Below, in pieces: positions 32,950 to 35,162 of a stretch of 64,000 nucleotides of DNA. How positions within the stretch are numbered: position 1 is the first letter of the stretch; each line of letters begins with the position of its first letter. Below the pieces are notes generated by a model that worked only from the letters and a program-made list of their open reading frames with translations, made no database searches and was not told the origin of the DNA. Source of the DNA: Lachnospiraceae bacterium (lineage in GTDB: Bacteria > Bacillota > Clostridia > Lachnospirales > Lachnospiraceae); the NCBI GenBank assembly GCA_045641285.1, contig JAZUGQ010000053.1:51790-115789 (forward strand), read 5' to 3'. The position numbers and the translations under genes were made by a program.

Positions 32950-33846
32950 ATGTTAAAAAAATGTATCAGATCTGTTGCTGTTATCCTGTTTGTAATTGTT
33001 ATGCTTATAACCAATACAGGAGTATCCAATGCACAAAATTGTCCGCTTACGGCTTTTCCTGCGAATAACGTAAAAGATTATTCTTTCATTCCTGTTTATG
33101 AAGTAAAATATAATATTTTTGCTACAGAGAATTATATACAATGGATATCACCGACAGTAAAAGTCACTGTTAAGGATACTGCCCAAATAGGACAGGTGAT
33201 TGCCAAAGCAACGAGAGCCCGTTCTAACGATAATTTAAATTTTAATACGGCAACTCAAAAAAGAAACAATAATTATATGTTATGCCAACAGGAAATACGA
33301 ACATATAAACGTCAATTTTCTAAATCCGGTAATTTTGCAAGCGGTTATTTTGATAGTGCAATGTTTGCTGTACCGGAACTGTCATATCAGCATATGGAAA
33401 CATTTAGTCCTAAGGCAGTCGCACCGTCCGCAACCATTACGGACAGTATAGAGGTGAGCTTCACAATCGGCACCAAGATTTCAACCTCGGTTAATGCAGG
33501 AATAAACGATGTTTCTTCCGAAATCGGAGCTGACGTAAATATGTCACAAACAACGTCAAGCGGTCAATCGAAAACGACAACAAAACATGCCGTGTCCACA
33601 AGCGCGTTATTTGAAAATGGTAAGCGAAAACTGATTTATCGGTTCAATCATGATGCTTTCAGTAAATTTTGCGGACCGGGAAGCTCCTATCTGGCATTGT
33701 ATGTTGTAAATTATACCAGTGATTGTAAAGCTAAACCTACAAGCAGTGACGGAACAAAATTTCCTGAACTTGCGACAACGATATATTGTAAAGAACAAAA
33801 AAAGACATATAAAGGAACTATGAATTTTAATATAAAAAATTATTGA
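32950..33846 (+). CDS. secreted protein of unknown family with a Sec signal peptide and an amphipathic Ser/Thr-rich beta-hairpin (possible beta-pore-forming toxin-like)
   Basis: 298 aa. Signal peptide MLKKCIRSVAVILFVIVMLITNTGVSNA. Residues ~165-200 (SIEVSFTIGTKISTSVNAGI-ND-VSSEIGADVNM) alternate strictly between hydrophobic and polar. AT-rich codon usage. Confidence 0.7.
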   Translation: MLKKCIRSVAVILFVIVMLITNTGVSNAQNCPLTAFPANNVKDYSFIPVYEVKYNIFATENYIQWISPTVKVTVKDTAQIGQVIAKATRARSNDNLNFNTATQKRNNNYMLCQQEIRTYKRQFSKSGNFASGYFDSAMFAVPELSYQHMETFSPKAVAPSATITDSIEVSFTIGTKISTSVNAGINDVSSEIGADVNMSQTTSSGQSKTTTKHAVSTSALFENGKRKLIYRFNHDAFSKFCGPGSSYLALYVVNYTSDCKAKPTSSDGTKFPELATTIYCKEQKKTYKGTMNFNIKNY

Positions 33847-33859
33847 TTGGAGATTCCGT

Positions 33860-34456
33860 ATGAGAAAACTCATTGTATTTGCCATTGCTGCAATCGTTGT
33901 AGTAATTGCTGCTTTAGGAGTTTTTGTTTATAAACAGAAGCAGAAAGATGACAAAAAAACTCCAGAATCAGAAGAAATTCTTTGTTCAGATGACATAGCA
34001 TACGATTACCTAAACAATACGGTTCCTGCAATATTTTATATATATGGCAGTGATTTACCGTTTTCGGAATCAACTAACGGTTTAAAATTACATACGAAAC
34101 ATATTGACCGGCTGAATGAATCCGAGCTGTATCCGGTAGAAGGATTTGAATGCTATACACTGGTAATCAATGATTTTTCCAATATCGCGGATTTAACGGA
34201 AGAAGATTTCGAAATGATAGATCGATTTATAAAAACAACCCAATTTCATATTTTTTATTTTGGAAATCGCTATATGAAAGAATTTAAGGAACATGGCTAT
34301 TGGGAATTTGAAGATTTGCCAAAAGAAGCATTGACAATTCAATTTGAATACAGACAACTCAGCCTTTGTGCAGACTGTTTATCCAGCTATAATGTAAAAG
34401 ATATTACCAATGACATTATATTCGATGTGTGGTTCAGCGAAACTTCGAACCGATAA
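33860..34456 (+). CDS. N-terminally membrane-anchored protein, unknown family, paralog 1
   Basis: 198 aa. GGAG RBS. TM anchor LIVFAIAAIVVVIAALGVFVY followed by KQKQK. No family recognised. Confidence 0.7.
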   Translation: MRKLIVFAIAAIVVVIAALGVFVYKQKQKDDKKTPESEEILCSDDIAYDYLNNTVPAIFYIYGSDLPFSESTNGLKLHTKHIDRLNESELYPVEGFECYTLVINDFSNIADLTEEDFEMIDRFIKTTQFHIFYFGNRYMKEFKEHGYWEFEDLPKEALTIQFEYRQLSLCADCLSSYNVKDITNDIIFDVWFSETSNR

Positions 34457-34480
34457 GGATTATTAAGTGCGCAACGATTT

Positions 34481-34545
34481 ATTGCAAAGAACAAGATAAG
34501 ACATATAAAGGAACTATGAATTTTAATATTAAAAATTATTGATTG
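34481..34545 (+). pseudogene. relic copy of the 3' end of the secreted-protein gene, carried along by the duplication
   Basis: attgcaaagaacaagataagacatataaaggaactatgaattttaatattaaaaattattga matches 33785-33846 with a few substitutions. No upstream reading frame or start. Confidence 0.75.
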
Positions 34546-34555
34546 GAGATTCTGT

Positions 34556-35152
34556 ATGAGAAAACTCATTGTATTTGCCATTGCTGCAATCGTTGTAGTA
34601 ATTGCTGCTTTAGGAGTTTTTGTTTACAAACAGAAACAGAAACAAGATACAGAACCTAATGAATCTGAAGAATTTTTTACAACAGAGGACGAAATATATG
34701 ATTATCTGAACAATACGGTTCCCGCAATATTTTATGTTTACGGCAGTGATTTGCAGTTTTCTGAATCTTATAATGGTTCCAAATTACATACGGTTCATAT
34801 TGACCGGCTAAATGAATCCGAACTGTACCCAGTAGAAGGTTACAAATGCTATACGCTGGTAATCAATGATTTTTCCGATACCGCGGATTTAACGGAAGAG
34901 GATTTCGAATTGATTGATCGATTCATTCAAACTACCAAGTTTCATGTTTTTTATTTTGGAAATCGTTATATGAAAGAATTTAAGGAACATGGCTATTGGA
35001 AATTTGAAGATTTGCCGAAAGAATCACTGACAATTCAGTTTGAAAAAAGAAGACTGAGTCTTTGTGCAGACTGCTTGCCAAGCTATAATTTTAAAGAGAT
35101 TACCGAAGCAATTGTAGACGATGTATGGTACAGTGAAAATTCGAACCGATAA
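34556..35152 (+). CDS. N-terminally membrane-anchored protein, unknown family, paralog 2
   Basis: 198 aa. Hand alignment to paralog 1 is gapless with 160 of 198 identical. The first 29 residues are identical, and the first 71 nt plus the upstream RBS region are nearly identical at DNA level. Confidence 0.7.
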   Translation: MRKLIVFAIAAIVVVIAALGVFVYKQKQKQDTEPNESEEFFTTEDEIYDYLNNTVPAIFYVYGSDLQFSESYNGSKLHTVHIDRLNESELYPVEGYKCYTLVINDFSDTADLTEEDFELIDRFIQTTKFHVFYFGNRYMKEFKEHGYWKFEDLPKESLTIQFEKRRLSLCADCLPSYNFKEITEAIVDDVWYSENSNR

Positions 35153-35162
35153 GTAACAAAGT

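Follow-up and report, generated by a model that had tools for sequence, protein, structure and literature searches.

The stretch of DNA analysed here, referred to below as the window, is a 64,000-nt segment (positions 51,790 to 115,789) of contig JAZUGQ010000053.1 in the Lachnospiraceae bacterium assembly GCA_045641285.1. As seen in Table 1, an island of four genes in the window encodes a secreted protein (S), two tandem paralogs of a membrane-anchored protein (A1 and A2), and a fused Type VII ATP-binding cassette (ABC) protein. A1 and A2 belong to an unannotated protein family, named A and new here, whose members are anchored in the membrane and for which there is no Pfam or NCBIfam model and no structural relative. 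The family, the ABC protein encoded beside it, and the duplication that gave rise to the two A copies are considered in turn below.

Table 1. Features of the island and divergence of the two A copies by segment. Positions are those of the window. ORF, open reading frame; RBS, ribosome-binding site; dN and dS, nonsynonymous and synonymous divergence; omega, dN/dS.
Feature	Position	Strand	Remarks
Promoter-like site of the four-gene island	32825..32853	+	TTGACA-17-TATTAT, 11/12 matches
S, Sec-secreted, beta-rich protein	32950..33846	+	298 aa
Duplication unit, copy 1	33776..34471	+	last 71 nt of S, RBS, gene A1, 15 nt downstream
A1	33860..34456	+	198 aa; transmembrane anchor residues 2-31, disordered tether ~33-40, alpha/beta domain
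Duplication unit, copy 2	34472..35167	+	
Non-coding relic of S 3' end	34472..34542	+	22 codons + stop, 71 nt
Putative gene-conversion tract, approximate, copy 2	34498..34635	+	3 differences/138 nt; partner 33802-33939 in copy 1
A2, second paralog	34556..35152	+	198 aa, intact, 81% identical to A1
Hairpin between A2 and ABC gene	35162..35194	+	perfect, 12 bp, GC-rich, then A run (not T); z -3.97 for 166-nt spacer
Fused Type VII ABC protein	35311..37971	+	ATG 35311 more likely start; longest ORF from TTG 35284
A1 vs A2, codons 1-29			dS 0.107, dN 0, omega 0
A1 vs A2, codons 30-47			dS 0.42, dN 0.58, omega ~1.4
A1 vs A2, codons 48-198			dS 0.60, dN 0.098, omega 0.16

No Pfam, NCBIfam or PADLOC model matched A1 or A2, and a word-indexed search of 5.8 billion proteins with A1 retrieved A1 and A2 and nothing else. 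Metagenomes were also scanned, once with the A pair and once with an S alignment, and gave zero matches. When 1.84 billion cluster representatives were scanned exhaustively with HMMER, 48 clusters matched at E <=1e-3, nearly all of them about 200 aa in length; one match, P0015 (628 aa, six matched stretches), proved to be a translated DNA repeat and was discarded as a false positive. Relatives of A were found in rumen Lachnospiraceae metagenome-assembled genomes, and the distribution of the family is patchy, with occurrences in 8 of 300 other Lachnospiraceae genomes, corresponding to 7 of 299 other genera. None of the 44 aligned members has a significant Pfam domain. The common architecture is an N-terminal transmembrane helix or, in several members, a lipobox, followed by an alpha/beta domain. 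Because these other members carry a lipobox in place of the helix, the globular domain must lie on the extracytoplasmic side. Only the columns P56, G63, D105, Y133 and G135 are invariant or nearly invariant.

An AlphaFold2 (AF2) model of A, built from a 20-sequence alignment, has a pLDDT (predicted local distance difference test) of 75.8. In this model a transmembrane helix (residues 2-31) leads through a disordered tether to a beta-alpha-beta domain that carries a long helix at its C-terminus. Confidence falls below pLDDT 50 at residues 33-40 and is also low at residues 150-175. Foldseek of this model against the PDB gave no match at E <=1e-3, the best being generic Rossmann-like (E 0.13), and the transmembrane helix in the model probably hurt this search; the family profile also found no solved relative in the PDB. 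Two candidate assignments were rejected. An SGNH/TesA-like protein had been prompted by the 'YG(D/S)' and 'IND' motifs, but no Ser or His is conserved, none of the 44 members matches Lipase_GDSL, and no SGNH structure is among the Foldseek matches. An adaptor of MacA/YknX/HlyD type is opposed by the lack of any such Pfam match in the 44 members and by the small alpha/beta domain that is predicted. Additionally, both A1 (34367-34378) and A2 (35063-35074) carry a CADC (CxxC) motif at residues 170-173; it sits in a low-confidence loop of the external domain and is not conserved across the rest of the family.

The fourth gene of the island encodes a single polypeptide in which a nucleotide-binding domain (NBD) and a linker are followed by a first transmembrane helix (TM1), an extracytoplasmic domain of ~395 aa and an FtsX C-terminal domain with three transmembrane helices. 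Pfam recognises ABC_tran (E 9e-32) and FtsX (E 4e-15, residues 764-885). The hydrophobic TM1 lies at about residues 340-362 of the longest ORF, that from the TTG, and ~395 residues separate it from the FtsX bundle; the match of the external domain to MacB_PCD is faint (E 0.14). The best PDB matches of the NBD are LolD, MacB, YtrE and FtsE, at ~1e-42 to 1e-35, and its best NCBIfam matches are LolD, FtsE and L_ocin_972_ABC, all of them under the equivalog cutoffs. PADLOC matches to mad3, mad8 and AriA fall on residues 29-255, the N-terminal ATPase, and were set aside as generic.

The ABC gene, and not the S gene, is the constant neighbour of A, and the two co-occur strictly. At 21 of 24 loci an A gene or A array lies directly upstream of a fused ABC gene on the same strand, and at the loci examined either a few tens of nt separate the two genes or the stop codon of one overlaps the start codon of the next. 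No more than three or four placements of A lacked an ABC gene, and some of these lie at contig ends. The 2.3-Mb genome to which the window belongs (G000) contains five cassettes, all with A followed by ABC. The 31 genomes of the genus contain 29 ABC genes of this subtype; an A gene lies at most 3 kb upstream of 28 of them, and the remaining one begins at a contig edge. The 14 genomes of the genus without A have zero ABC genes of this subtype, and three loci outside the genus show the same pairing.

The four further cassettes of the window's own genome (C29:89375-93547, C29:62799-65914, C30:29405-32580 and C47:53810-56751) vary in their other parts. One has a lipoprotein A; an upstream secreted protein is present in two, absent from one and reduced to a remnant in one.

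The secreted protein S is far less constant, being optional and unstable: many cassettes with intact A and ABC genes lack S, have lost it by deletion or keep it in decayed form. A beta-rich protein of 220-330 aa with a signal peptide is encoded directly upstream of A at about 12 of 22 loci, and several A-ABC cassettes have no S at all. A sister-species cassette (L034) is 99.2% identical in A and ABC and lacks exactly the 1.18-kb S segment (G000:C29:92590-93768); one of its flanks is 93% identical and the other 98.7%. The much more diverged flank, at 93%, hints at a recent exchange of the cassette between species. In the C30 cassette of the window's genome, an 86-aa ORF upstream of A (L004:1944-2204) is an S-type remnant. 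Residues 1-17 correspond to the signal region of one S protein, and the last 61 residues align with the C-terminus of another at 56% identity, which implies an internal deletion of ~200 codons.

Window S has no significant match in Pfam, NCBIfam or the PDB, the profile of eight S proteins has none either, and the word-indexed search of 5.8 billion proteins returned S itself only. S proteins form at least four sequence families in addition to window S, which is itself without close relatives. Little is common to them apart from a central motif with a proline, visible in most and followed by an S/T/G-rich segment; the one invariant proline in the eight-sequence alignment is P154 of window S. An hhalign comparison of window S with one S family from other cassettes gave a probability of 70.8% (E 3.8e-5). 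No S family occurs in more than one clade of the A tree, which indicates that S and A-ABC diversify together. The AF2 model of S (5-sequence alignment) is all-beta and, with a pLDDT of 40.9, unreliable. The top Foldseek match of this unreliable model is the alpha-hemolysin pre-pore (E 4.4e-3, TM-score 0.22), amid pilins and cohesins. No Pfam Leukocidin match was found at E up to 1, and the beta-periodic amphipathicity of the central S/T/G-rich segment of window S is weak (z 1.8, p 0.04) and not significant in other S proteins. The structural matches and this signal count as leads only.

Between S and the ABC gene, a repeat search of the window found a direct repeat whose two copies start exactly 696 nt apart. 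The ungapped copies, compared at that offset, are identical at 589 of 696 positions (84.6%). Similarity begins abruptly at 33776 and fades on the right about 15 nt past each stop codon. Each unit holds the 71-nt tail of S, a 13-nt spacer with a GGAG RBS and a 198-codon ORF, and both ORFs are open. BLASTP aligns A1 and A2 without gaps at 160 of 198 identical residues (E 1e-111), exactly the figure that the sequence-only reading had counted by hand. Tandem Repeats Finder was silent on the repeat because the longest period it reports is 500. An assembly artefact was considered and is excluded because 107 differences (15% divergence) separate the copies.

The S tail of the second unit reads TIYCKEQDKTYKGTMNFNIKNY* in its own frame, with one amino-acid change relative to the true C-terminus of S, and by tblastn it is 91% identical to S residues 276-298. 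The only ATG ahead of its stop opens just the last 8 codons. Since there is thus no usable start codon, the tail is a relic, and the RBS was copied along with it (GGAG at 33849-33852 and 34545-34548). The exact offset of the duplication, the surviving fossil of the 3' end of S and the duplicated RBS had all been claimed from the sequence beforehand, and each was recovered here, the relic with slightly revised limits (Table 1). An old tandem duplication would have copied the 696-bp unit as a whole, that is, the tail of the S gene, the RBS and the entire A gene.

The two copies have diverged unevenly along their length. The first 164 nt (33776-33939) hold 7 differences, and 0 of 20000 permutations gave a 164-nt window with 7 or fewer; the longest identical run is 73 nt (permutation p = 0.0002). 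The 84 nt of relic and spacer upstream of the start codon hold 6 differences. At the protein level, A1 and A2 share 5 of 18 positions across residues 30-47 and 126 of 151 (83%) across residues 48-198. The values of dN/dS by segment in Table 1 were obtained from Nei-Gojobori counts. Synonymous sites of the gene body show 36.5 differences in 88.5 sites, significantly different from the relic (Fisher's exact p ~1e-7). Gene-body dS ranges from 0.33 to 0.90 by segment. Since flanking housekeeping genes have a dS of 0.26-0.52 against the sister species, the duplication is about as old as the split of the sister species, or older.

The simplest account of the clean 5' block is a putative gene-conversion tract of ~140 nt over an older duplication. 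The tract spans most of the relic, the RBS and codons 1-27. A later conversion would have re-homogenised these ~140 nt, including the transmembrane helix, and the unstructured tether just downstream would have drifted freely. The first 26 nt of the unit hold 4 differences, near the 15% average of the unit, which suggests that the original duplication already took in the tail of S. Conversion at the 5' end, proposed by the sequence-only reading together with the uneven divergence, is supported by the 6 differences in the 84 nt around the relic, by a dS of 0.107 in the first codons against 0.60 in the body, and by mosaics in three other arrays. In principle the low 5' divergence could also reflect nucleotide constraint on the RBS or on leader structure, a point against conversion that carries little probability. 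It is very improbable that selection on nucleotides, rather than recombination, keeps the block alike in a young duplication with an accelerated body: the RBS and start region do lie inside the block and transmembrane helices are constrained at the protein level (dN = 0), but a body dS of 0.6 with an omega of 0.16 indicates an old gene body, not an accelerated one, the block reaches ~60 nt upstream of the RBS, into sequence that codes for protein in copy 1 but not in copy 2, so that a shared constraint is unlikely, and dS = 0 tracts in other A arrays lie at quite different sites, including mid-gene, which is the signature of conversion and not of a shared leader.

The earlier suggestion that the juxtamembrane segment has been diversified is unsupported, since this segment is predicted to be disordered and both dN and dS are high there. 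Residues 30-47 represent neutral drift of the tether outside the conversion tract, with no demonstrable positive selection; shifting the segment to codons 31-50 changes the estimates to dN 0.42, dS 0.78 and omega ~0.5. The tether is the only region of A1/A2 with an omega near 1, and no diversifying selection is seen on the domain. The globular domain is under purifying selection (omega 0.16), which indicates that both copies stayed functional. The duplication itself is an ordinary tandem duplication with conversion, and a clean example. Its mosaic of near-identical tracts beside old, saturated sequence is the same as in the concerted evolution of tandem paralogs, where the sites of tracts likewise vary among arrays; in this respect there is no difference, and the conversion aspect is textbook.

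Arrays of 2, 3 and 2+2 A copies exist in other genomes, and another pair exists in a different genus. In the A tree, groups of their own are formed by the window pair (100), by the triple of locus L026 (88) and by three similar copies of locus L025 (97). The pair of locus L027 and one sequence from another genome make up a three-way clade (100) whose internal order is unresolved, and a divergent lipoprotein copy of L025 falls outside the L025 group. Three other arrays show dS = 0 blocks adjoining saturated blocks, at codons 31-100, at codons 31-150 and in the first 30 codons, respectively. Full homogenisation of the C-terminal third is never seen in those arrays, and its dN there is the highest or close to the highest. 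The window duplication is one more instance of a recurrent pattern of arrays and conversion. The L025 locus (G002:C22:26500-30325) has the order A, A, S, A, A (lipoprotein), ABC and runs into a contig end; two near-identical A copies lie upstream of S there, and the repeat unit may include S.

The island has a G+C content of 33-38%, against 43-51% in its flanks, and no Rfam match was found in it. The his operon and rimP-nusA adjoin each other in the sister species, and the flanks align at ~91-94% nucleotide identity. Homology ends at 32853, the promoter-like site being the last shared sequence, and window positions 32854-37947 give way to an unrelated sequence of 177 nt (L036, G013:C42:78230-78467). 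The promoter and 22 nt from the very end of the ABC gene survive in the sister species, which argues for loss in the sister rather than gain here. The right end of the duplication abuts the left arm of the hairpin that precedes the ABC gene; this hairpin (35162-35194) is not a canonical terminator on either strand. A 48-aa ORF with a single transmembrane helix, at 32650-32796 between hisIE and the island, counts as conserved backbone and not as part of the island, since it lies inside the sister-species alignment, which is 88% identical at the nucleotide level there.

The function of Type VII ABC transporters is typically set by a periplasmic protein with which they pair, and systems with an extracytoplasmic partner include MacAB-TolC, LolCDE-LolA, FtsEX-EnvC/PcsB/CwlO (SweC/SweD) and YbbAP-TesA (PMC12646458). 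The window cassette shares with these systems an NBD of LolD/MacB/FtsE type, an FtsX-type C-terminal transmembrane bundle, a large external domain between the first and second transmembrane helices, and a small outward-facing protein encoded beside the transporter. The fusion of NBD and permease is the same as in MacB, and the A gene stands where macAB and yknXYZ have the gene for their adaptor, MacA or YknX. Unlike the established partners, however, A carries no HlyD/MFP (membrane fusion protein), LolA, LytM/coiled-coil or SGNH signature. The external domain of ~395 aa is roughly twice the size of that of MacB, and the organism of the window has a single membrane, so no TolC-type duct is expected. 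Also, the A partner gene is often present in two to four tandem copies, an arrangement that is not known from Type VII systems.

Similarities are also seen with bacteriocin loci. Lactococcin-972-type loci have the same order of a Sec-secreted protein, then one or more membrane or anchored proteins, and an ABC ATPase, and TIGR03608 is the third-best NCBIfam match of the window NBD, although its 177 bits fall under the cutoff of 254.85. The anchored or lipoprotein helper beside an ABC pump recalls NisI/SpaI with LanFEG, and orphan modules without the secreted protein occur in the A family as they do in lactococcin-972 and LanFEG loci. In contrast, mature S has ~270 aa and not ~66 aa, it does not match Lactococcin_972, and A shows no similarity to LanI proteins. 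The lactococcin-972 immunity protein has seven transmembrane helices and LanEG is of the ABC-2 type, whereas the window permease is FtsX-type and fused to its NBD. The BceAB/YxdLM modules are Type VII ABC systems of Firmicutes with a small co-transcribed envelope protein (YxeA, VraH) that act in defence against membrane-active agents; they have a permease with ten transmembrane helices, a separate ATPase and a two-component link, none of which was seen in the window locus.

It is rather probable that A is an outward-facing partner of the ABC motor and that the pair protects against S-like secreted proteins. The role of A as a partner subunit is suggested because Type VII ABC transporters usually function together with an external partner. 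A would dock on the large external domain of the motor as its extracytoplasmic subunit, and would fill the role that MacA, LolA, EnvC or TesA has in other Type VII systems. Less firmly, the A-ABC pair would be a self-protection machine against S-type secreted proteins, since A and ABC are kept after the loss of S, S and A diversify together, and there are several cassettes per genome. Many Type VII systems of Firmicutes are defence pumps. With two A variants, a single motor would have two partner specificities at its disposal; A copies differ from one another chiefly in the tether and the C-terminal third.

Several points weigh against this interpretation. Gene adjacency alone cannot separate a subunit from a protein that is co-inherited but independent, and the fold of A has no significant PDB match by structure or by profile. 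S has no recognisable toxic domain, so protection lacks a demonstrated toxin. The A2-ABC spacer of the window is unusually long (158 nt, with a strong hairpin), whereas the genes nearly abut in other cassettes.

A more specific version can be put forward, which is possible but doubtful. The S-A-ABC cassette would be a hitherto unrecognised system of protein toxin and immunity pump in rumen Clostridia, with S a fast-evolving, Sec-secreted, membrane-attacking beta-protein and possibly a pore former. A-ABC would pull S from the membrane of the producer, tandem A variants, which conversion keeps partly similar while their C-terminal thirds differ, would widen the range of S proteins that a single motor handles, and orphan pairs would guard against the S proteins of neighbours.

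It is unlikely that A and ABC are instead dedicated to the handling of their own S, with the pair extracting, releasing, folding, activating or assembling S after its Sec export, in the manner of LolCDE with lipoproteins or FtsEX with hydrolases, and A acting as the adaptor that holds it. The order S-A-ABC does recur behind one promoter, S families co-vary with A clades, and Type VII systems act on extracytoplasmic proteins (PMC12646458). However, intact A-ABC pairs persist where S has been deleted, has decayed or was never present, which would be unexpected if S were the sole client, and S needs no extraction because it has an ordinary cleavable Sec signal peptide and no lipobox.

Stand-alone immunity was the proposal of the sequence-only reading, in which each A copy would neutralise S at the membrane surface independently of ABC and the array would be the product of an arms race. 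The proposal is in keeping with tandem arrays of variable copy number, with an outward-facing, membrane-anchored A directly after a fast-evolving secreted S, with S families that follow A clades, and with an AT-rich island missing from the sister species. It is nevertheless distinctly improbable, because A occurs without S at at least 7 loci while its neighbour remains the ABC gene, which is absent from only three or four placements. Paralogs occurring without the secreted protein had been named by the sequence-only reading itself as grounds to refute immunity. Moreover, the globular domain of the paralogs is under purifying selection, the hyper-divergent segment is a predicted disordered tether and not a binding surface, and no toxin domain is seen in S. 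Because immunity genes also occur as orphans, linkage to S in about 12 of 22 loci neither proves nor excludes a toxin-immunity family. Immunity stays plausible only with A as a subunit of an ABC-based self-protection machine, the reading preferred here.

Returning to A as a partner of the ABC motor, the family behaves as an obligate neighbour of one fused MacB-type ABC subtype in rumen Lachnospiraceae. Since Type VII systems are defined by their external partner and A is a new partner family, the pairing points to a new job for this class of motor in single-membrane bacteria. The A family and its cassette are a new variation on the theme of Type VII ABC transporters that have a partner, and the duplication within it is ordinary evolution. 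With five cassettes in a 2.3-Mb genome, an S that comes and goes, and a presence that varies between sister species, the cassette suggests a role in rumen competition or envelope defence.

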